Positions 12,217 through 34,743 of a stretch of 64,000 nucleotides of DNA are shown one piece after another. The translations under genes and the position numbers were made by a program. Source of the DNA: a virus (taxonomy: Duplodnaviria > Caudoviricetes); the IMG/VR virus record IMGVR_UViG_3300024331_000007, positions 256,001-320,000 of that record; one strand, given 5' to 3'. Position 1 is the first letter of the stretch. The number at the start of each line of letters is the position of its first letter. The notes under the pieces are model-generated. The model was given only the letters and a program-made list of their open reading frames with translations. It made no database searches and was not told where the DNA came from.

Positions 12217-12413
12217 ACGAAGACATGGAATTTGTAAAACGATTGTATCCAACCGCAGTGTATGATTCTCATGCATTTTGGGTTTGTGCGGACACAATTG
12301 AGGCTGGTAAGAAACGCACATATATTTTAGGTATCGGTGGAAATGCAAAGAATGGTTGGACCCATGCAGCGCAACACCTTCGTAATAGGGTGTTGCGCCA
12401 ATTTGAAAGTTAA
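12213..12413 (+). CDS. Family B small protein
   Basis: FVKRLYPTA...GIGGNAKNGWTHAAQHLRNRVLRQFES. Confidence 0.85.
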   Translation: MNEDMEFVKRLYPTAVYDSHAFWVCADTIEAGKKRTYILGIGGNAKNGWTHAAQHLRNRVLRQFES

Positions 12414-13897
12414 CCAATCTTGAAACAGATTTTCCCACCGGGTCTTGACGATGCACTGTAGTTTTTTCGGCTGAAAAATTTAACTGTTCCTGTGAATACA
12501 GGTGGCCAAATTACTTGGAAGTTTGAGAACGATGCTCCATTACCAGTTTTCTTAACGCTCGTCTTAACTTGAAGCATATTGCTGCGGCTCAAAATCTCTC
12601 TGAAAAAGTCAGTCACAAATTTTGAGTTCTTATTCAAATGATCAGTGACTGAGTGAGCCACGATGGTTAGCAAATGATAACCAACTGTATAATTCGGACT
12701 GTTCACATTTGGATTTGTGACTGGATTTTTCAGCAATGCCTTTAGCTCTTTCGACAAATGCTTCTTATCCATATGAGGATCGGCGATTGCTCTTTTGATT
12801 TCATCACGCATTGCTGGAGTTATTATCTTATAAAGCACACCAAGGACCAGCGGCCCTTCTTCAGCAGATTTATCCTTCACAACTTTCATAACACTGAACA
12901 GGCTTTTGTACTTTCCGCTTTCCACTAAATCTTCGTATCGTTCTGGATTTCGTTCTATGGCAGAAGTTAAGCTTGTGATGCTTGCTGCTGCTCCGCCCTT
13001 TCCATCCTTGCTGCTGATACCAATCTTATCATTCTTCAGAATTAGATAACTATCAATCAAGGCTTCCCTGTCGCTCATTGGATATCCAATTAATTTGATC
13101 TTCCTCCAACTTGAACCCATTGGTTTCAGCAATTGATCCTCGACTTCTCTGTAATCTCCAGAAACAAAATGTCCTGTGAGTAGCGCGATAGGTGCGGCAA
13201 TTTCTCCAAGGCTAACTTCATATGATGTTGCATATTGGGCAGCATTGGCAACAGGTGTATCAAAACCAGCATATACGTTCTTTACTAGCTGAATAGATTG
13301 CTGACGAACGTCCTGTGGTATTTCTGTATGAGTTGGAAGATTCGTCTGAATTGTTTCCATAATCTCATCAACGGTCATGTATCTGCCGTCACCCACAACG
13401 ACGCTTGGGGTGAGATTCAGGTCAGTTTTTTGTTGTACGTTGTCGTTAATTGAATAACCAGTGTCTCTGGCAAAATCGCTGTTGCTCCAAAAGAATGGAA
13501 CAGCACCAGCACTTTTTGTATTGAATAATTTTACAAATGCAACTGTCTCGCCTCTGCCATTCTTCCATAGAGTAACAAGGGCTGCTCGACCATTCGTATT
13601 AACCAAATTCCAATTTGCATTTGAGATTCTTGCTTTCTTTTGATATTGCGCAAGAACATCCATAACTTTCATGTAACCAGTTTTCAGTAGCTTTTTCTGC
13701 TCTGCTGGCGGAAGTTTACGGGCCTGTTTTGGCAGGGCTTCAATCGTGTCGTTTTCATAAAATGCGGCATCTTCGGGGAAAATAGCATTGCCGATGGCAG
13801 TTATCTTATGCCCGTCTTTGTCGGTGAATACAGCCGACTCCTGTGAGCGGACATATATTCCACGACTTCCAGCTTCTAGTAGTTGATGATATTTCAT
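12410..13897 (-). CDS. Putative capsid-targeted protein with possible PD-(D/E)xK-like nuclease motif
   Basis: N-terminus MKYHQLLE resembles the T4 capsid-targeting sequence; LGE...LIDSY...IGISSK; late promoter 5 nt upstream. CDS is certain, function is inferred. Confidence 0.6.
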   Translation of the reverse strand: MKYHQLLEAGSRGIYVRSQESAVFTDKDGHKITAIGNAIFPEDAAFYENDTIEALPKQARKLPPAEQKKLLKTGYMKVMDVLAQYQKKARISNANWNLVNTNGRAALVTLWKNGRGETVAFVKLFNTKSAGAVPFFWSNSDFARDTGYSINDNVQQKTDLNLTPSVVVGDGRYMTVDEIMETIQTNLPTHTEIPQDVRQQSIQLVKNVYAGFDTPVANAAQYATSYEVSLGEIAAPIALLTGHFVSGDYREVEDQLLKPMGSSWRKIKLIGYPMSDREALIDSYLILKNDKIGISSKDGKGGAAASITSLTSAIERNPERYEDLVESGKYKSLFSVMKVVKDKSAEEGPLVLGVLYKIITPAMRDEIKRAIADPHMDKKHLSKELKALLKNPVTNPNVNSPNYTVGYHLLTIVAHSVTDHLNKNSKFVTDFFREILSRSNMLQVKTSVKKTGNGASFSNFQVIWPPVFTGTVKFFSRKNYSASSRPGGKICFKIG

Positions 13898-13902
13898 ACC
13901 CG

Positions 13903-13969
13903 TATTTATTCCTTTTCGTTAACTTCCCAATTCCTATTTATTACACCCTATTGCCCATTATCATAAATA
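13903..13969. promoter_or_regulatory. Divergent gp55-type late promoters (TAAATA)
   Basis: TAAATA on minus at 13908-13903 and 13940-13935, and on plus at 13964-13969. Confidence 0.7.
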
Positions 13970-13984
13970 GAAAAGAGGGTTACG

Positions 13985-14950
13985 ATGAGGATTTCAGAAA
14001 TTATCAATGAAGGTGGTCATGTTTTTGCCGAAAAAACCACTGCAATCAAGCGAGAGGATATCGCGCCGACTTTAGCAGCCTACTTTAAGGAGCTAAAGCA
14101 ATTATTTCCTAAGAAGGCGTCCATTTTTTCCACGGAATACTTCATCCCACTCGGTTCTGTTGGTAAAAAGCCAGTATCAGGCGATATAGATTTGGGTATT
14201 GATGCAAGTACAATTCTTGATAAGACCATGAGCGATACATCTGTTGCAGCATGGAATATTGATCCGAAGCAACTCCAAAAAGAGTTTGAAATTTTACAAA
14301 AGAGAGCTAGATCGTCGTCTCCAGAACAACTCCGAATGAAAGCTTTCCTTAAACTTCTAACCAAATTTCTGAATGCACGATCAAATAACATTGAGTCCAG
14401 TGAAAAGAAAGTAACAACGGGAAACATGTTTACGCTATTCCCACAAGTTACTGCATCTGGCAAAGGAAACGATAAGGGAGTTCAAATCGATTGGATGATT
14501 GGTAATTTAAATTGGCTGAAGTTTTCCTATTATTCTTCTGAATATCCCGAAGGTTCCAATGTAAAGGGGCTGCATCGCACTCAACTGTTGCTCTCTGCTT
14601 TTCAGACGGCTAATCTAGCATTTGATCACGTATCTGGTGTTAAGGACAAGGAGACTGGGAAGATTTTGGCAACCGATCCAGATACAGCATTAAAGGCTCT
14701 TGGAAAACGGTTGGGTTTTGCTATTCCAATTGAGGATGTTGAGAATTTCTATAAGCTGAACGATCTACTTGCAAAAAACATGACACCTCAACAGTATCGT
14801 GAAACTCTTGATAGATACTACAGAACATTGGATTCAACTCGCGCTGATATTCCAGATAATCTTCAAAAGGATTGGCTGACACGAAAGGACGCGCTCAACC
14901 TAACAGGGGCGTTTCTTCCTGATACTTCAAATCTACAGAGATACTTATGA
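13985..14950 (+). CDS. Pol-beta superfamily nucleotidyltransferase, putatively capsid-targeted
   Basis: LGSVGKKPVSGDIDL (hGS..DhD) and third Asp in GVQIDW; N-terminus MRISEIINE. Confidence 0.75.
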   Translation: MRISEIINEGGHVFAEKTTAIKREDIAPTLAAYFKELKQLFPKKASIFSTEYFIPLGSVGKKPVSGDIDLGIDASTILDKTMSDTSVAAWNIDPKQLQKEFEILQKRARSSSPEQLRMKAFLKLLTKFLNARSNNIESSEKKVTTGNMFTLFPQVTASGKGNDKGVQIDWMIGNLNWLKFSYYSSEYPEGSNVKGLHRTQLLLSAFQTANLAFDHVSGVKDKETGKILATDPDTALKALGKRLGFAIPIEDVENFYKLNDLLAKNMTPQQYRETLDRYYRTLDSTRADIPDNLQKDWLTRKDALNLTGAFLPDTSNLQRYL

Positions 14951-15870
14951 TTATAGAATCAGGCGTAACAGGTGCGGAACGAATTAGAAATAGAGCCGAC
15001 TTTGCTCAGTTTGTGAAGTCGTATACACAGGTAATTTCCAAATTTCCCGGTTTTGTGAGCCTGCGCCCTTCTGGAAGCTATAATTCTGACATGAACAAAA
15101 AAGATTTTGGTGACATTGATCTTATTGTTCATATTGAATCTGATAAGCCCAAGCCTGTTGTGAAGAAAGAACTGCAACGATTCTTTGATGCTATGCCCCA
15201 GACTGTTATTGTTCCGTTTACCTCTCCAAAGCATATTGGAAAGAGAACATACAATGCAGGAGAACTTGTCTCTGTTCGTTATCACGATAGCAAGCTGGGT
15301 TACAGTGTTCAAATCGATAATATTGTTGCTCTTACGGCTCTTGAGTCCGATTTTAAGGAACGATTCCTAAATTTTCGGGCAGAAGAACAGGGTATATTGA
15401 TGGGTTTGGTTAAAATTGCGGCCATTGAAACCGATCCAGCTATATTGTTTAAGAAATTAGGCATCAGAAATCCGGGTCCATTAGGACCAAGACAAGAATA
15501 CGAATTTAATCTCAGTGGAACAGATTTGCAACTCCGCAAAGTAACATACGAACCAAACTCGTACAAAGAAATAAAACGAGAAATACTCTGGCGTACAACT
15601 GACTTCAATGCTGTGGCCAAGTTGCTGTATCAGTACGATATTACCGCGAACTTTGATAGTTTAATTGCTCAGGCAAAAGCCAAAGCGAAGAATCCTCGCA
15701 GTAAGTTTAGACTACCGGGTGTTTTTAATTCAATGATTACTGTAAAGAGCGGCGAGGTTGGAACCCAAAAGGGACAAGGAAAAATCGACGCTCAAAACAA
15801 ACTCGCAGATACTTTTGAATCGCATTTCGGTCTTATCTATCGCGCAATTGTTCTCTGTGAAAAATTCTAG
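14947..15870 (+). CDS. Second Pol-beta superfamily nucleotidyltransferase
   Basis: SGSYNSDMNKKDFGDIDL and SVQIDN; ATGA-coupled to the first NTase. Confidence 0.75.
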   Translation: MIIESGVTGAERIRNRADFAQFVKSYTQVISKFPGFVSLRPSGSYNSDMNKKDFGDIDLIVHIESDKPKPVVKKELQRFFDAMPQTVIVPFTSPKHIGKRTYNAGELVSVRYHDSKLGYSVQIDNIVALTALESDFKERFLNFRAEEQGILMGLVKIAAIETDPAILFKKLGIRNPGPLGPRQEYEFNLSGTDLQLRKVTYEPNSYKEIKREILWRTTDFNAVAKLLYQYDITANFDSLIAQAKAKAKNPRSKFRLPGVFNSMITVKSGEVGTQKGQGKIDAQNKLADTFESHFGLIYRAIVLCEKF

Positions 15871-15907: not shown

Positions 15908-16759
15908 ATGAATACTAAACTATATCAGATTTGTTATCTTCCAGAACATTTTTCCGCAGTGGGCGCACGGTTTGACTTTTGGGACAACACAGTCAATGTG
16001 AAACCTGAATTGCGCGAGTATCCAATTTTCGAACGAGCTTATACTTCTAAACTAACCAAAGGTCTTGATTATTGGGGTTTGGTCAGTCCTAAATTTGAAA
16101 AGAAAGCTAATATCACTGGAGGCCAATTTTTGGATTGGGTTGAAACGGTCCAAAAGACCCATCCATGTGATGTATATTTTGTCAATCCAGTTCCCATCGT
16201 GGAGTCAATCTTCCCCGGTACAATCCAGCATGGTGAAAATTGTCATCCCGGTCTTCTGGGCTTATTGCAGCGAAATATTTCAGAAGCCGCAGGAATTGAT
16301 TTAGCATCAATGTACATGGATTGCAACACGTTCTCAATGTGCAACTACTTTATAGGTAATCGTAAATTTTGGGACTCATACATAAACTTCGTCCAAAAAT
16401 TCCTTGATTCTGTTTCAAAAAATCCAGAAGATGACGAATTAATGTATAGAAAGAGTGCCAACTACGGACCCAATAAAACATTACCCTATTATACATTTGC
16501 TGTTGAGCGCCTGTTCAGCATCTTCCTTAATCTGGAACGTAGAAAACAAGGTGGAATAACAGCTACGCACTACACATATTCGCGCGAAGCCCTACTCACG
16601 AAAACAGGTTTGCCTGAGTCTATCATATCAACCCTTATTGCTCTTACAGACATAAAGCAGATGGCAGTTTCGGCTGGATACCCCGGAATGATGCAACATT
16701 GGGCATTTTTTAGAAACCAGCTATGTCAACAGAATCAATATCTGTTTTTGATGGAATAA
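15908..16759 (+). CDS. Glycosyltransferase-like hypothetical protein
   Basis: KLYQICY...REY...YWGLVSPKF...DVYFVNP...CNYFIG...ERLF; recalled from phage glycosylation loci. Confidence 0.5.
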   Translation: MNTKLYQICYLPEHFSAVGARFDFWDNTVNVKPELREYPIFERAYTSKLTKGLDYWGLVSPKFEKKANITGGQFLDWVETVQKTHPCDVYFVNPVPIVESIFPGTIQHGENCHPGLLGLLQRNISEAAGIDLASMYMDCNTFSMCNYFIGNRKFWDSYINFVQKFLDSVSKNPEDDELMYRKSANYGPNKTLPYYTFAVERLFSIFLNLERRKQGGITATHYTYSREALLTKTGLPESIISTLIALTDIKQMAVSAGYPGMMQHWAFFRNQLCQQNQYLFLME

Positions 16760-16767
16760 ATATTGGT

Positions 16768-17463
16768 GTGAACTACGAAAAGATATATCGTCAACTTATA
16801 GATAATCGAAAAAGAGTAAAACCGTCTGGATACAAAGAAAAGCATCATATCCTTCCAAAATGTATGGGAGGAAAAAACAGTAACAGCAATTTGGTGTTTT
16901 TGACTGCAAGAGAACATTATGTCTGTCATAAACTACTTACTAAATTTGTTGATGACAAGTTTAAAGCAAAAATGATATACGCTTGGCATATGATGACGGT
17001 TGATCGAGGGAACAGAAAAGTAAAAATAACTAGTAACGACTACGCAATATTACGAGAACAGCATACATTAGTGGTATCAAACAGAAAAATTTCAAAACAA
17101 ACTAGGAAGAAGATGTCGGCGTGGCAATTAGGAAAAGTTCCTTGGAATAAAGGAAAGACTGGTATTTATTCAGCAGAAACCATTAAGAAAATGTCCGCAA
17201 AAAGAACTGGAACTGTCTCCTCAAAACATACAAAAAAGAAAATTTCTTTAGCTATATCCGGTAGTAATAATCCTATGTTTGGTAAATCTCATACGATAGA
17301 ATCTAAGAAAAAGATGACTGAGGCTAAAATTGGAGCAAATCATCCAAAATTTGGTAAAAAATTCCAATGGGTATTTAATCCTACGACCAATTCTATGAAA
17401 TCTATTATTCACGAAGACTTAGAAAAATATTTACTCAATGGCTTTAGAAAAGGAAGAAAATAA
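16768..17463 (+). CDS. HNH homing endonuclease with NUMOD3 repeats
   Basis: EKHHILPKCMGG...LTAREHYVCHKLL; PWNKG and NPMFGKSHT repeats; GTG start 5 nt after TAAATA (16757-16762). Confidence 0.85.
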   Translation: MNYEKIYRQLIDNRKRVKPSGYKEKHHILPKCMGGKNSNSNLVFLTAREHYVCHKLLTKFVDDKFKAKMIYAWHMMTVDRGNRKVKITSNDYAILREQHTLVVSNRKISKQTRKKMSAWQLGKVPWNKGKTGIYSAETIKKMSAKRTGTVSSKHTKKKISLAISGSNNPMFGKSHTIESKKKMTEAKIGANHPKFGKKFQWVFNPTTNSMKSIIHEDLEKYLLNGFRKGRK

Positions 17464-18194
17464 TGAAAACATTGTGGCTGATTTCGAGCGCCATCCATAC
17501 GCGCCACGGAATCTTTTCTGCCGAACAGCGCCTTGAACAGACTATAGCCACACTTGAGTCAATCAAGGCTGTAGACCCATCGGCTCGTATTCTTATTGTG
17601 GAAAGTAGCGCAGAAGCATCCATAACAGATGAAGAGTCTGACAAACTGAAGCCATACATCGAAGGTCTATTGAACTTTAATCCAGATGTTCAGGTTCAGG
17701 ATATCTACAAGATGGCTGACAAAAACTGGGATGTGGCTAAGAACCTTACAGAATTGGTAGTTTTTGGTAAGGCGTTGGACTTTCTCATTCGTCAGCAACC
17801 AGACCTGTTGGAAGGTATTGATCGCGTATTCAAAATAAGCGGTCGATACCGTCTTAACGAGAACTTCGACATTTCCAAGCATATCGATCCTAAACAAAAT
17901 GAAAATTACATTTTCGCTGCTAGACGCCCGAGCCAATTCCCAGCAATTGTTACGGATGGTTTGTCCCAGCAAGTAATGAGCAGACTTTGGTCATGGCCCC
18001 CACAGAAAACAGCCCTCATTTTCTTCAGATATAATTTGATGATAGAAGACTTCATTGGAACAATGGCCCAAAAGAAGTACCGCGATATTGAGCATCTTCT
18101 ATTCAAATACTTCGGCGGTCCTTATATGGTCGAACTGCCTGTAATTGGCGTTGAAGGTGAAATCGGTCCAAACGGTGCGGCAGTTAAGGACTAA
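17463..18194 (+). CDS. Glycosyltransferase(GT-A)-like conserved phage protein
   Basis: LISSAI...RLEQTIATLESI...ILIVESS...FKISGRYRL...DIEH. Confidence 0.5.
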   Translation: MKTLWLISSAIHTRHGIFSAEQRLEQTIATLESIKAVDPSARILIVESSAEASITDEESDKLKPYIEGLLNFNPDVQVQDIYKMADKNWDVAKNLTELVVFGKALDFLIRQQPDLLEGIDRVFKISGRYRLNENFDISKHIDPKQNENYIFAARRPSQFPAIVTDGLSQQVMSRLWSWPPQKTALIFFRYNLMIEDFIGTMAQKKYRDIEHLLFKYFGGPYMVELPVIGVEGEIGPNGAAVKD

Positions 18195-18209: not shown

Positions 18210-18539
18210 ATGAATCATACCAGCGAAGAAATGATGGCGATAGCGAAGCCAAATTGTTTGATCTGTGTGCCACTAATCAAACCGTGGATAGGCATTGTTA
18301 TAAAGTATGCCGAAGATGACTATGACGAAGCTATCTTCTACCCAAACCCAGATCAGGTAAGAATTTCATCTGGAACAAGAATTGTTAGCAGGTTGTTATC
18401 TGAAGCTGACTCAGATGAAATTAAGAGCGATTGCCAAAAGGCCGGTTCAAACAAAGTTCTATCAGTTGATACTGACTGTTCAACCATAGCCATTTTATCT
18501 TGGGACGAATGGGTTGATTATATGAAAAAGCCAGCTTAA
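18210..18539 (+). CDS. Hypothetical protein
   Basis: 109-aa ORF with AAGGA SD. Confidence 0.7.
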   Translation: MNHTSEEMMAIAKPNCLICVPLIKPWIGIVIKYAEDDYDEAIFYPNPDQVRISSGTRIVSRLLSEADSDEIKSDCQKAGSNKVLSVDTDCSTIAILSWDEWVDYMKKPA

Positions 18540-18551
18540 CCGCTGGCTTTT
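18526..18551. terminator. Bidirectional intrinsic terminator
   Basis: AAAAGCCAGC-ttaacc-GCTGGCTTTT between convergent genes. Confidence 0.8.
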
Positions 18552-19234
18552 CTGCCTTTCACATATCCTTGTTGTTCATAATCTGACACGTCTTCGGGAC
18601 GCACAAACTTGCATTTCATAGTTTCTGGATGATAAAGCCAAATGTTTCCGCGCTTTTTAGCCCCGATTCGTTTGCGCGATTCTTCCGTATGAGTTTTGCC
18701 TAGCCAAATTTGATTCCCTTTCTTGAATTTAGACATTTTCTGCCTGAACTCTTCAGATCGTGTAGGATATTTCTTACCTGTTCGAACCAACGACATTTTT
18801 CGTTTACACTCGTCTGACAAAGTTCTACCCTTGAGAGCATTCGAAAGATTTTCCCTGTGCTCTTTTGAGAAGTTCCCACCAAAATTTGGATTGTTCTCGC
18901 CCTTCCATTGTTCTGAACGCCATTTCTTTGTTTCATCTGATTGAAGATGACCTTTTGAACCATCTCCACCATCCGTATGATTTAGCAGGATTCCAGTTCC
19001 TTTGTCGCGGCGTCCATACAGATGAATCAGAAGCATTTCGGCTTGAAAAGCGTCAGCCTCAGTCATGCTTTCGGATATGAATGCGATGTTTTTGGTGTCT
19101 TTAGGGACATGAACTCCTACGTGATGAGAGAATGCTCGTTTTCCAAGCCCTTTTCCGATATAATAGGGTGTTCCCGCGTTGCCGTGAACGGAGTCTCGCT
19201 GGCGTAGGTAGGAATAGACGTAATAAATATTCAT
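18536..19234 (-). CDS. GIY-YIG-like homing endonuclease with NUMOD3 repeats
   Basis: YYVYSYLRQRDS...TPYYIGKG...LLNHTDGGDG; start 19234 after structured leader. Confidence 0.85.
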   Translation of the reverse strand: MNIYYVYSYLRQRDSVHGNAGTPYYIGKGLGKRAFSHHVGVHVPKDTKNIAFISESMTEADAFQAEMLLIHLYGRRDKGTGILLNHTDGGDGSKGHLQSDETKKWRSEQWKGENNPNFGGNFSKEHRENLSNALKGRTLSDECKRKMSLVRTGKKYPTRSEEFRQKMSKFKKGNQIWLGKTHTEESRKRIGAKKRGNIWLYHPETMKCKFVRPEDVSDYEQQGYVKGRKASG

Positions 19235-19299
19235 GTGCTGTTGCTCCACGAAGCGATAGGGCAGTTGGGTCTTCACACTGCGAACTGCGATAGTATTTA
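19235..19299 (-). promoter_or_regulatory. Late promoter plus structured 5' leader of a homing endonuclease (copy 1)
   Basis: ATAAATAC, stem GCAGTT/AACTGC, SD GGAG inside hairpin; homologous to 42490-42556. Confidence 0.65.
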
Positions 19300-19332: not shown

Positions 19333-19896
19333 ATGGCTAAAGATTCCAACCGAATTGATATACAAGCAATTCTTGACAACATCAAAACAGTATCCATGAG
19401 TCCGTCTGCTATGGAGAGCGTTTGTGAGTTTGAACGAGTAATTGACGAAAATGGCCTTTATGCTTTCCATCACTGGAAGGACGGCGAACTCGTTTCCGGT
19501 CCAAACATTACTGCATATCGCGTCACTTGCACATTTTGCTGGCCGCTTGAGAAGATGCCCGATCCTGCTGGTGCGCAACGTCTTCTTTCATATGGTGTAA
19601 AGGTCTATTACAAGAAGGCTTGGTTAGTTTATCCAATCAAGATTAAATCTGAAGACGATTTCAGACCATCCATCAAAAAACCAAGACTCGCCAGAATCAA
19701 GGTTTGGCTTGTCACAATCAATATGCCAAAGTATCTGATTAAGGAAATCAAGCAGAGCAGCAAAGAAATTATCGATCAGGAAATGGATATGGGTGACATT
19801 AACGATAGTTACGAGCAGAACATTAGCCCAGATGAAAATCCGTTAAGCGGAAATGAACCAACTGAATCTGCGCCTATTGCTCCTCAAGGATTCTAA
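19333..19896 (+). CDS. Conserved late hypothetical protein of large T4-like phages
   Basis: EFERVIDENGLYAF..W..GELV.GP...VTCTF.WP..KMPDP.GA.RL; TAAATA at 19311-19316. Confidence 0.75.
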   Translation: MAKDSNRIDIQAILDNIKTVSMSPSAMESVCEFERVIDENGLYAFHHWKDGELVSGPNITAYRVTCTFCWPLEKMPDPAGAQRLLSYGVKVYYKKAWLVYPIKIKSEDDFRPSIKKPRLARIKVWLVTINMPKYLIKEIKQSSKEIIDQEMDMGDINDSYEQNISPDENPLSGNEPTESAPIAPQGF

Positions 19897-32576: not shown

Positions 32577-33038
32577 ATGCGACTACACGAACTTTTTGAG
32601 GCCCCATTTACGCAACCGGGAACAACATTTATTATTAATGACCCCAATGATCCCCAAAAGCAGCCAGCAATTAATACTGGTCGAAGCATAGGTACGGCTC
32701 CTGCTCCTCCAACAACTATTACTTCACCAACTGCACCGAATCAAATTCCCCAATCAGCATCTCCCACGGTGAATACTGCTCAGACTGGATCAAATACAGC
32801 AAATACCGCAGCACTAGCAGCAGCCAGTCAGCAATTGACCAAGGGTGCTCCTATCAACCTTCCAATGGGTCCAGCAAAGCAACCAACCCAGATGAAGGTT
32901 ACAAATGTAGGTAATAACAGTTTAGGAACTAATCAAAAAATGGTAACTGTTGCCGACCCAAAAAATCCAAATGCCCCACAACAGACTTACAAATTTGATG
33001 ACTTAGCTAATATGATTACAAACAAAGGTAATGTGTAA
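32577..33038 (+). CDS. Putative internal head protein, P/T/Q/N-rich
   Basis: MRLHELFE capsid-targeting-like N-terminus; TAAATA at 32550-32555. Confidence 0.55.
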   Translation: MRLHELFEAPFTQPGTTFIINDPNDPQKQPAINTGRSIGTAPAPPTTITSPTAPNQIPQSASPTVNTAQTGSNTANTAALAAASQQLTKGAPINLPMGPAKQPTQMKVTNVGNNSLGTNQKMVTVADPKNPNAPQQTYKFDDLANMITNKGNV

Positions 33039-33730
33039 TGATGTATCAGAAAATAATTTTAGACCTAGCAAGTAACAAATATATCAATACATATGTTGCT
33101 GTATGTGTTCGCGCCCAATTGCGAGCCAGAACAAAAAAGGAAGCAAATCAACTAATAGGATATGTGGAAGAACATCATATTTTGCCAAAATGTTTTGGTT
33201 TGGGGGGAGAAAAAGATAAGACAAATTTTTCGTATCTTACAGCCAGAGAACATTTTATTTGCCACAAACTACTAGTTTTTGGGTTGAAAAAGACAAAATA
33301 TTATTGGAAATGTCTAAAAGCCGTTTCAGCATTTTCTCAGAGTAACAAGTTACAAAATAGAGTTTTATCATCCAGAAGTTATGAATTTGCTCGTAAATGT
33401 AATTCAGAAGCTATGAAAACGAGAATAATATCTGCTGAAACTCTGCTGGCGATGTCACTATGTCAAAAAGGAAAAATTTCTTCTAAACGCGACACTCATC
33501 TATCAGAAGGACAGAAAAATAAAATATCAAAGACAAAAACAGGAAAACCGTCCAAACGTAAAGGATTTGTTATGTCAGAACCCCAAAAACTAAAAATATC
33601 TTTATCTAAACAAGGTAAGCCGCTAAAAAAATGGTCGCGGGAACGCAAAGAAAAGGCTTCACAACGAATGAAAGAAGCATATCAAAATGGTACGGTTCTT
33701 TTTGGTAAATTCAAAATCCAAGGAGAATAA
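33038..33730 (+). CDS. HNH homing endonuclease with NUMOD3-like repeats
   Basis: EEHHILPKCFGLGG...LTAREHFICHKLL. Confidence 0.85.
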   Translation: MMYQKIILDLASNKYINTYVAVCVRAQLRARTKKEANQLIGYVEEHHILPKCFGLGGEKDKTNFSYLTAREHFICHKLLVFGLKKTKYYWKCLKAVSAFSQSNKLQNRVLSSRSYEFARKCNSEAMKTRIISAETLLAMSLCQKGKISSKRDTHLSEGQKNKISKTKTGKPSKRKGFVMSEPQKLKISLSKQGKPLKKWSRERKEKASQRMKEAYQNGTVLFGKFKIQGE

Positions 33731-34134: not shown

Positions 34135-34743
34135 ATGGCAACTACCGCAAAATTGTTCTATGTTTATCAATATCTTAGACAGAGAGATTCTAAAAATGGA
34201 ACTGCTGGTTCGCCATATTATATTGGCAAAGGCAATGGAAAAAGAATCAAAGGAAAACATTATGTTTCAGTTCCTAAAAATGAAAATAGCATTCAAATTT
34301 TAGCCAATAACTTGTGTGAATCGGATGCGTTTCAGTTGGAGATGTTTCTAATATTTCTTCATGGACGAGTTGATAAGAAAACGGGTATTTTACATAATTA
34401 TACTGATGGTGGCGAGGGAGCCGTTGGAGCTATCCGTAATGAAGCAACAAAAAAGAAAATGTCATTTGCTCATCAAAAGAGATCAGAAGTAACCAAATTA
34501 CGATCTTCCATTAGTCATAAAGGTCAACGAGCGTGGAATAAAGGAAGAAAAATAGGTTCGCCTACAAAAGAGTCAAGAGAGAAAATGTCATTGGCGGCGA
34601 TAAATCGTAAGGCATCTCCAGAAACAAAATTGGCCATGTCTATAACTAGACTTGGAAGAGAAAAAACACAGGATCATAAAAATAAAATAGGTTTATCTAA
34701 CAAAGGCAAAACACCTTGGAACAAAGGATTGAAAGTGGTGTAA
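34135..34743 (+). CDS. GIY-YIG-like homing endonuclease with NUMOD3 repeats
   Basis: FYVYQYLRQRDS...SPYYIGKG...NYTDGGEG...AWNKG, PWNKG; TAAATA 5 nt upstream. Confidence 0.85.
   Translation: MATTAKLFYVYQYLRQRDSKNGTAGSPYYIGKGNGKRIKGKHYVSVPKNENSIQILANNLCESDAFQLEMFLIFLHGRVDKKTGILHNYTDGGEGAVGAIRNEATKKKMSFAHQKRSEVTKLRSSISHKGQRAWNKGRKIGSPTKESREKMSLAAINRKASPETKLAMSITRLGREKTQDHKNKIGLSNKGKTPWNKGLKVV

Follow-up and report, generated by a model that had tools for sequence, protein, structure and literature searches.

The window analysed here (64,000 nucleotides, positions 256,001 to 320,000 of the viral record IMGVR_UViG_3300024331_000007) is part of a single viral contig of 359,890 bp, the genome of a T4-related jumbo phage. 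It carries two adjacent open reading frames (ORFs), ORF1 and ORF2, both predicted to encode nucleotidyltransferases with a fold like that of the family X DNA polymerases (PolX), and ORF1 begins with a sequence resembling the capsid-targeting sequence (CTS) of the T4 internal proteins. The features of the locus are listed below. Positions are those of the window unless genome positions are stated, lengths are in amino acids (aa), pI is the isoelectric point, pLDDT is the predicted local distance difference test score of the structural model, and a slash marks a putative cleavage position.

13963-13969, + strand: late-promoter-like motif ATAAATA, 15 nt 5' of the ORF1 ATG, read from the sequence
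13973-13979, + strand: Shine-Dalgarno-like AAGAGGG, 5 nt before the ORF1 ATG, read from the sequence
13985-14950, + strand: ORF1, 321 aa, starting MRISEIINE, predicted PolX-fold nucleotidyltransferase; predicted mature form residues 10-321, pI 9.2
13985-14011, + strand: ORF1 codons 1-9, MRISEIINE, capsid-targeting-like propeptide ending INE/GG
14153-14191, + strand: ORF1 catalytic motif, G57-S58-x8-D67-I-D69
14480-14491, + strand: ORF1 third catalytic Asp, V166-Q-I-D169
14947-15870, + strand: ORF2, 307 aa, starting MIIE, predicted PolX-fold nucleotidyltransferase, pI 9.4
14947-14958, + strand: ORF2 codons 1-4, MIIE, putative minimal (I/L)-x-E site before the conserved SGVTGA
15073-15120, + strand: ORF2 catalytic motif, G43-S44-x11-D56-I-D58
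15307-15318, + strand: ORF2 third catalytic Asp, V121-Q-I-D124
15850-15867, + strand: ORF2 C-terminus ...RAIVLCE/KF, putative remnant of a tag-like linker plus LxE site; residues 304-307 with pLDDT below 50
12410-13897, - strand: divergent late gene of 495 aa, starting MKYHQLLE, probably another capsid cargo protein
13903-13909 and 13935-13941, - strand: two late motifs of the 495-aa gene

The contig also encodes a gp55-like late sigma factor, gp46/47-like nuclease subunits, a gp5-like hub, a gp6-like wedge and, at genome positions 356996-357439, a gp21-type prohead protease (Peptidase_S77, 85.5 bits). By comparison of the wedge protein, the closest cultured phages are Atu_ph07, XaC1, SCTP-2 and the Rak2-like coliphages. 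The TGA of ORF1 and the ATG of ORF2 overlap as ATGA, through which ORF2 is predicted to be translationally coupled to ORF1.

A reading of the window made earlier from the sequence alone (the sequence-only reading) had placed the pair under a late promoter. The ATAAATA motif upstream of ORF1 agrees with this, and the canonical T4 form TATAAATA occurs 0 times in the window. Within 60 nt 5' of ORFs genome-wide, [AC]TAAATA are the most enriched 7-mers (7-11 fold), ATAAATA being observed 40 times against 5.6 expected and CTAAATA 30 times against 2.7. The motif is located 5-35 nt before the genes for the gp5-like hub, several virion proteins, two giant structural proteins and the protease. Judging from these positions and counts, the putative late-promoter motif of this phage is [AC]TAAATA, a variant of that of T4, and not TATAAATA. 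The 87-bp gap between ORF1 and the divergent 495-aa gene carries three late motifs. A sequence scan detected no sigma-70-like promoter 5' of ORF1, and no + strand terminator-like site from the ORF1 start to the next gene after ORF2. Other examples of the late motif in the window are at 19333, 20974, 42614 and 50570. A second enriched set (GGTTGAC, TGGTATA, TATACT) resembles early promoters of the sigma-70 type whose -10 is extended.

Catalytic motifs and predicted fold

Each of the two ATGA-coupled genes encodes a complete catalytic set, GS-x8-DID plus VQID in ORF1 and GS-x11-DID plus VQID in ORF2, as the sequence-only reading had described, and these sets are conserved in family alignments of 46 homologs (ORF1) and 50 homologs (ORF2). 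G57, D67, D69, V166, Q167 and D169 of ORF1 are invariant, with S58 and I168 nearly so; in the ORF2 alignment G43, S44, D56, D58, Q122 and D124 are invariant. With complete or near-complete conservation of the Gly, the Ser and all three Asp, the motifs represent maintained active sites and not chance resemblance. Both families are large (1744 homolog matches for ORF1 and 458 for ORF2). In Pfam and PHROGs, ORF1 gave no match and ORF2 only a weak one to NTP_transf_2 (E 0.04), and sequence profiles of the PDB gave chance matches only for both proteins. When the ORF1 family was compared with the ORF2 family by hhalign, the GS...DID motif alone was aligned (probability 0.8%). At the level of sequence the likeness of the two families is confined to the motifs, and shared ancestry is not demonstrable.

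The AlphaFold (AF2) models built from the family alignments were of high confidence (pLDDT 90.5 for ORF1 and 89.7 for ORF2; predicted template modelling score 0.84). The best 50 Foldseek matches listed in PDB for each model were all family X enzymes (Pol beta, mu and lambda, and one bacterial PolX). By VIA-align, the palm plus thumb of Pol beta (residues 142-338) was aligned with ORF1 at Z 8.8 (182 aligned residues) and with ORF2 at Z 11.8 (183 aligned), terminal deoxynucleotidyltransferase at Z 8.3 and 11.2, and Pol lambda at Z 8.0 and 10.9, respectively. Lower Z values were obtained for terminal uridylyltransferases, poly(A) polymerases, CD-NTases, OAS and MenT, for which the alignment mostly covered the palm of about 100 residues, with a few longer ones at root-mean-square deviation (rmsd) 5-12. 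The CD-NTases in particular gave Z 4.3-4.7 with ORF1 and 7.0-8.7 with ORF2, most rows again covering about 100 palm residues and a few longer ones having rmsd 9-12. The AFDB clusters, ESM Atlas and BFVD agree with a PolX-like fold. DUF6267, a structural neighbour in the Atlas, was dropped as it had no hidden Markov model (HMM) match in the genome.

Both proteins start at the palm, model residues 1-14 being aligned to Pol beta 142-143, and neither has the 8-kDa lyase or helix-hairpin-helix domains. In this they resemble PolX of African swine fever virus (ASFV; PDB 5hr9), which also consists of palm plus thumb only, without 8-kDa or fingers domains; the VIA-align alignment to it (ORF1 Z 8.4, 164 aligned; ORF2 Z 10.5, 163 aligned) spans the whole 176-residue chain. 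Unlike the ASFV enzyme, with which they share 11-12% sequence identity, ORF1 and ORF2 are two distinct enzymes in tandem, each with an extra C-terminal helical domain (about 60-80 residues) that no structural match covers, and ORF1 has in addition a helical insert of about 70 residues.

Taken from the catalytic residues, which fit the superfamily signature hG[GS]-x(7-13)-Dh[DE]h with a third carboxylate on a later strand, and from the palm fold of the models, both proteins are Pol-beta-superfamily nucleotidyltransferases with intact catalytic sets, in agreement with the sequence-only reading. As to the subfamily, which that reading had left among several members of the superfamily, the Foldseek check it had proposed indicates a family X-like fold of palm plus thumb, rather than a cGAS/CD-NTase, CCA-adding or AMPylating-toxin type. 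By modelled fold, both proteins are minimal PolX-like enzymes (palm plus thumb); by sequence they are not covered by the curated PolX models. We also considered the 'minimal split DNA polymerase III' of group 2.2 jumbo phages and rejected it: in that enzyme NTP binding and Mg/DNA binding fall to two halves whose genes are far apart (PMC7824862), and here two complete catalytic sets are in adjacent genes.

The N-terminal tag of ORF1 and a homolog in virions

Residues 1-9 are the sole stretch with pLDDT below 50 in the ORF1 model. The pattern M-R-x-x-E-[FI]-I-x-E is found in 4 proteins of the genome, against 0.02 expected from the rate within proteins: ORF1 (MRISEIINE) and three proteins (MRASEFITE, MRLREIICE and MRFEEFIVE) encoded at genome 46.4-50.1 kb. 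These four proteins have no mutual similarity past the tag. A looser form of the tag is found in 13 proteins against 0.6 expected, and a late motif lies within 50 nt of 7 of these 13, compared with 67 among all 627 ORFs (Fisher p = 1e-4). Bearing this tag are, among others, a GP88-family protein, a GNAT-like protein, a 5'-nucleotidase of NT5C type (HAD-type), an ART-PolyVal-like protein and, with a length of 511 aa, a fusion of a HIGH-motif (CTP_transf_like) nucleotidyltransferase domain to GNAT. As a candidate list of capsid cargo, about 13 proteins with M-[KRL]-x-x-[ED]-[ILVF]-[ILVFE] can be drawn up; coordinates of tagged proteins are genome 46399-50077 (-), 324702-329036 (+), 41217-41888, 74535-75119 and 235591-235809, and window 32577-33038.

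The same element was examined in the best 120 ORF1 homologs. The anchor GGNVF is present in 117 of them, six of which start at M-GGNVF, and in 111 it is preceded by a prepeptide of 4 to 138 residues (mode 9). Directly before GGNVF, the P1 position is Glu in 108 of the 111 and the P3 position is Leu, Ile or Val in 107. These counts indicate that the ORF1 extension is a length-variable add-on in which nothing is fixed but the T4-type protease site that precedes a constant mature N-terminus. Some tags in the family are near the T4 one (MKTFAQYLAE, MLTFKQFITE). The ORF1 profile led to 80 related viral loci, in which 66 further distinct tagged ORFs (MRAKEFIVE, MRAREFITE, MLLNEFFG...) are located near the pair; by analogy, the tagged ORFs around the pair resemble the internal-protein loci of T4.

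The internal proteins of T4 are cleaved once beside the CTS, MKTYQEFIAE, and cargo fused to this sequence enters the head (PMC8442874). T-even internal proteins are diverse, the tag being all they have in common (PMC3012670), and T4 Alt is shortened by six residues at ITE-6 and by a C-terminal piece at LTE-619 (PMC5694885). With the IPI-III/Alt system of T4, the phage described here shares the tag pattern (MRISEIINE, MRASEFITE and MRFEEFIVE, and MKTFAQYLAE in a homolog), its presence on unrelated proteins, its (L/I)-x-E ending, a gp21-type protease gene, late-promoter-like motifs and the basic nature of the proteins. In contrast to T4, the tag here has 9 residues, the cargo would be a pair of PolX-fold nucleotidyltransferases instead of small inhibitors or an ADP-ribosyltransferase, and packaging and cleavage of the two proteins are predictions. 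These comparisons indicate that ORF1 bears a T4-CTS-like, protease-cleavable tag. Together with the virion homolog described next, they support packaging of ORF1 well, and ORF2 may be packaged too.

A homolog of ORF1 has been detected in virions. Gp65 (gp065) of Atu_ph07, a protein of 277 aa starting MGGRAF, was found via BFVD and then with the ORF1 profile in the genome (tblastn to ORF1, E 4e-8; hhalign to the ORF1 family, 97.9%, E 3e-13, 218 columns). It shares the motifs GGxxF, LGSxGKKPxSGDID, VQxDxMxGN and KGLxRT with the ORF1 family, indicating that it is a true member of that family, from the same group of T4-related jumbo phages. In Atu_ph07 virions analysed by electrospray ionization tandem mass spectrometry, Gp 65 (32.16 kDa) was represented by 10 unique peptides with 36.8% coverage (PMC6102473, Supplementary Table S5), and the numbering of this virion list agrees with RefSeq for gp70 and gp181/182. 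Also in the list, with 9-13 peptides each, are gp60-63 (PMC6102473), which start MRWDQLTE, MKWHQLTE, MRWHQLIE and MRLFQLLE, respectively (tags of M[RK]WxQLxE type); the 495-aa protein of the window, MKYHQLLE, for which no Pfam or PHROG match was found, resembles these tags. Gp65 differs from ORF1 in having neither the helical insert, nor an annotated tag, nor an ORF2 partner. An in-frame TTG nine codons 5' of gp65 (Atu_ph07 locus L093, 5175-5201) would give MLKFEGTLSM/GG, which resembles the longer tags of ORF1 homologs, and the annotated gp65 start may be wrong; this was not used as support. The ORF1 profile detected nothing in phages RsoM2USA, XaC1 and fHe-Yen9-04.

The gp65 gene adjoins gp66, in which a KLDGS motif is present and RNA_ligase is matched weakly (E 0.002) over nearly the full model length. 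This neighbour bears on the possibility that the pair serves RNA repair in the manner of RlaP or CCA-adding enzymes, restoring tRNA-end nucleotides lost to host anticodon or acceptor-end nucleases with one enzyme for each step. Jumbo phages of this group do use template-independent nucleotidyltransferases together with RNA ligases (PMC7824862), these nucleotidyltransferases belong to the Pol-beta superfamily as well, and two different enzymes in fixed order would suit a two-step reaction, as in the split CC- and A-adding pairs. We nevertheless consider RNA repair very unlikely, given that neither ORF1 nor ORF2 matches the RlaP HMM (PF10127, E up to 1), that CCA-enzyme head/neck architecture was not seen and the nearest folds are those of PolX DNA polymerases, and that no RNA-ligase-like gene lies beside the pair in the window. 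A six-frame search of the genome gave a single weak RlaP match, at about 127 kb (127268-127381, - strand, E 0.018), in an untagged 344-aa frame; two ORFs with ligase-type KxDG motifs, also untagged, are at genome 17635-18234 (-) and 153084-154205 (-).

Co-conservation and fusion of ORF1 and ORF2

In 74 of the 80 related loci an ORF2 homolog lies directly 3' of ORF1 on the same strand, and 5 of the other 6 loci end at a contig edge. The two genes meet in ATGA in 21 loci and overlap by one base in 20. ORF1 and ORF2 are joined into a single ORF of 612-633 aa in eight loci, which come from eight different metagenomes and represent three sequence types. Given this strong co-conservation and the occasional fusions, the two proteins probably function jointly, as had been proposed from the pairing in the window. 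The fusion junctions (...KAHLGE/SGSTGA, ...ANMTE/SGVAGA and ...RLTE/SGVAGA) carry (L/M)-x-E at the position of MIIE/SG in the window.

As to ORF2 itself, 107 of 120 homologs start with MSG, 11 of 120 (including that of the window) with M[ILVM]xE-SG, and one with a full tag. Since most ORF2 homologs start with MSG, MIIE is not a targeting sequence; it has instead the appearance of a minimal (I/L)-x-E cleavage site such as that found at the ORF1::ORF2 fusion junction. The capsid-targeting N-termini suggested for both proteins in the sequence-only reading are thus retained for ORF1, with its tag and its distant relative in virions, and given up for ORF2.

Many ORF2 homologs run on into a CTP_transf_like domain with an NMNAT-type GRFQP..(H/T)xGH motif (the HIGH-motif domain), followed by GNAT, DUF6321 or further parts in polyproteins that reach 1122 aa. 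The linker from ORF2 to the HIGH-motif domain is a tag-like helix ending in LxE (...RALIE/, ...NSLLE/, ...RSLME/). The genome of the window has its own copy of the HIGH-motif domain, in the tagged 511-aa protein, and in ten loci the domain after ORF2 is 38-44% identical to this copy. On sequence grounds, the simplest reading is that the modules would enter the prohead each under its own tag, or else joined in polyproteins that the prohead protease cuts apart.

Such an arrangement is reminiscent of the polyvalent proteins of phages and conjugative elements (Iyer et al. 2017, PMC5512222), in that the modules of the relatives are strung into polyproteins (ORF1::ORF2, or ORF2::HIGH-motif nucleotidyltransferase followed by a GNAT, DUF6321 or zincin-like HExxH part) and several enzymes would be delivered with the DNA. 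It differs in that the modules of the window are separate genes and in the predicted cutting at LxE by the prohead protease, as against an embedded metallopeptidase. The Pol-beta nucleotidyltransferases of polyvalent proteins are minimal four-strand enzymes of Firmicutes elements and form a different family (PMC5512222). In Flavobacterium phage immuto, gp088 (locus L001, 8908-11631), a protein of 907 aa annotated as NadR/NMNAT, consists of an ORF2-like PolX-fold domain, a HIGH-motif nucleotidyltransferase and, C-terminally, a zincin-like part that has two HExxH motifs and recalls those of polyvalent proteins. Since the immuto homologs are tagless and located among replication genes, and the ORF2-like protein has two HExxH motifs, the family is used in more than one delivery format.

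The fusions also raise the possibility that the enzymes are packaged but act on host proteins (nucleotidylation) or on small nucleotides (NAD-related, or as decoy signals). They would then form a counter-defence or takeover set together with the NMNAT-like HIGH-motif nucleotidyltransferase and with the cargo of GNAT and ADP-ribosyltransferase-like type. Besides the frequent fusion of ORF2 to the CTP_transf_like domain, the tagging of the GNAT-fused stand-alone HIGH-motif domain and the presence of an ART-PolyVal-like protein and an NT5C nucleotidase among the tagged cargo would fit such a role; the Pol-beta nucleotidyltransferases of polyvalent injected proteins have been predicted to be protein modifiers (PMC5512222), and head-packaged NAD/ADP-ribose enzymes have been called common in myoviruses (PMC9503650). 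On the other hand, the PolX thumb is kept, with 160-185 residues aligned to PolX enzymes compared with about 100 palm residues for most CD-NTases, MenT and ANT, both proteins are basic, and the Atu_ph07 homolog adjoins an RNA-ligase-like gene. We regard protein or small-nucleotide targets as unlikely on balance, though the recurrent NMNAT-like fusion and the ART-like and GNAT cargo would still fit a nucleotide- or NAD-centred counter-defence role.

Some related loci have a neighbourhood of replication or nucleotide metabolism. In immuto the pair is tagless and surrounded by primase, exonuclease and 5'-nucleotidase genes, with an NT5C-type phosphatase gene following it; in L002 it is near genes for dCMP deaminase and a family B DNA polymerase; and in L004 (1-6025), from a 156-kb uncultured phage, it comes directly after a thymidine-hypermodification-type cluster (Tet_JBP, GATase_6, GNAT, ADDT and a P-loop nucleotide kinase). 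Together with the classical role of PolX enzymes as repair polymerases, these neighbourhoods would suit unpackaged enzymes, acting in the cytoplasm late (or midway) in infection in repair or replication, for example in gap filling during recombination-dependent replication or packaging, and the N-terminal motif would then serve translation efficiency, turnover or some other localisation. This explanation seems improbable to us, however, since the tag is common to unrelated proteins far beyond chance and tied to late motifs, since the helix-plus-LxE element also occurs at internal junctions of polyproteins, where no role in translation initiation is possible, and since a family member is represented by 10 peptides in Atu_ph07 virions.

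Downstream of the pair in the window, with no predicted terminator between, are the genes for a 283-aa protein (15908-16759, + strand; weak DUF4422, glycosyltransferase-like) and a 243-aa protein (17463-18194, + strand), both of which are also kept beside ORF1 in locus L018. Four HNH/NUMOD3 (MobE-like) homing endonuclease genes are dispersed in the late region, at 16723-17463 (+), 18536-19276 (-), 33038-33730 (+) and 34135-34743 (+), one of them within the operon downstream of the pair.

Proposed role of the pair

The interpretation we favour, with a probability of roughly 60%, is that ORF1 and ORF2 are a co-inherited pair of PolX-core enzymes, each with an intact two-metal catalytic triad, of which ORF1 is loaded by its CTS and cut by the gp21-type protease and ORF2 probably enters with ORF1, and that both, as a best guess, act on 3' ends of nucleic acids. 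The two genes would be transcribed late from the [AC]TAAATA-type motif. ORF1, made with the 9-residue T4-type propeptide MRISEIINE, would be directed to the prohead core, where the gp21-type protease would cut after Glu9 to leave the mature N-terminus GGHVF. ORF2 would probably accompany ORF1, either bound to it or, in relatives, joined to it in an ORF1::ORF2 polyprotein, and may be trimmed at MIIE/SG. Both proteins, being basic (pI about 9.2-9.4), would lie with the packaged DNA and exit with it. The data on tag, cleavage motif, synteny and the virion homolog suggest packaging, after which the pair would be ejected; for the activity, the best guess is nucleotidyl transfer to nucleic-acid 3'-OH ends, in gap filling or tailing. 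The pair would then be part of a pre-loaded kit for end repair or end protection, to which relatives would add the HIGH-motif (NMNAT-like) nucleotidyltransferase and the HAD phosphatase. Nucleic-acid 3' ends are favoured as the substrate because the PolX-specific thumb is retained, because gp65 of Atu_ph07 adjoins an RNA-ligase-like gene, and because a phosphatase of the HAD-type NT5C kind is among the tagged proteins here and comes after the pair in immuto.

Several points weigh against this interpretation. Membership in PolX is by fold only, with TM-scores of 0.31-0.46: ORF1 and its 46 relatives gave zero matches to the Pfam PolX models (DNA_pol_B_palm, DNA_pol_B_thumb), and among the ORF2 relatives only 5 of 50 gave matches to DNA_pol_B_palm, all sub-threshold (best E 0.027). 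The substrate assignment is a best guess. The great majority of ORF2 homologs, those starting with MSG, have no tag, and L018, a syntenic locus, is truly without ORF2. Since the immuto homolog is tagless, the ORF1 family is not always tagged and may be cytoplasmic in some phages. The support from virion proteomics, by analogy, comes from gp65, a distant tagless homolog only 28% identical to ORF1, and not from this phage or a close relative; the ORF2 profile detected no relative in the Atu_ph07 genome. Moreover, the Atu_ph07 virions were purified with polyethylene glycol, and the list includes likely contaminants (RecA-like protein, single-stranded DNA-binding protein, ribonucleotide reductase) with 1-3 peptides each (PMC6102473).

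A bolder form of the interpretation is a capsid-held, two-polymerase end-processing machine, in which two minimal PolX enzymes, with the packaged NMNAT-like nucleotidyltransferase and the HAD phosphatase, would act before phage gene expression on the genome or on host nucleic acids. We hold this only tentatively and think it rather unlikely. If true, the machine would work within the first seconds after infection, either at the ends or nicks of the phage genome as it enters or on nucleic acids of the host. To our knowledge, no injected polymerase function of this kind has been described among viruses of bacteria.

What happens at the very start of an infection depends on capsid-delivered proteins, and those known from T4 are small anti-restriction proteins and an ADP-ribosyltransferase. 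The delivery system proposed here is the known one of T4; what would be new is PolX-like enzymes as its cargo, of which we found no description in the literature. The cargo would be two PolX-like enzymes from families that no Pfam or PHROG model recognises, with well over a thousand relatives in environmental phages, and the candidate enzymes could be useful as minimal polymerases or terminal transferases. Combined with cleavage at (L/I)-x-E, the tag M-[KR]-x-x-[ED]-[FIL]-[IL]-x-E may be taken as a sequence rule that selects about 13 enzymes in this genome and would list the probable injected proteome of uncultured T4-like phages.

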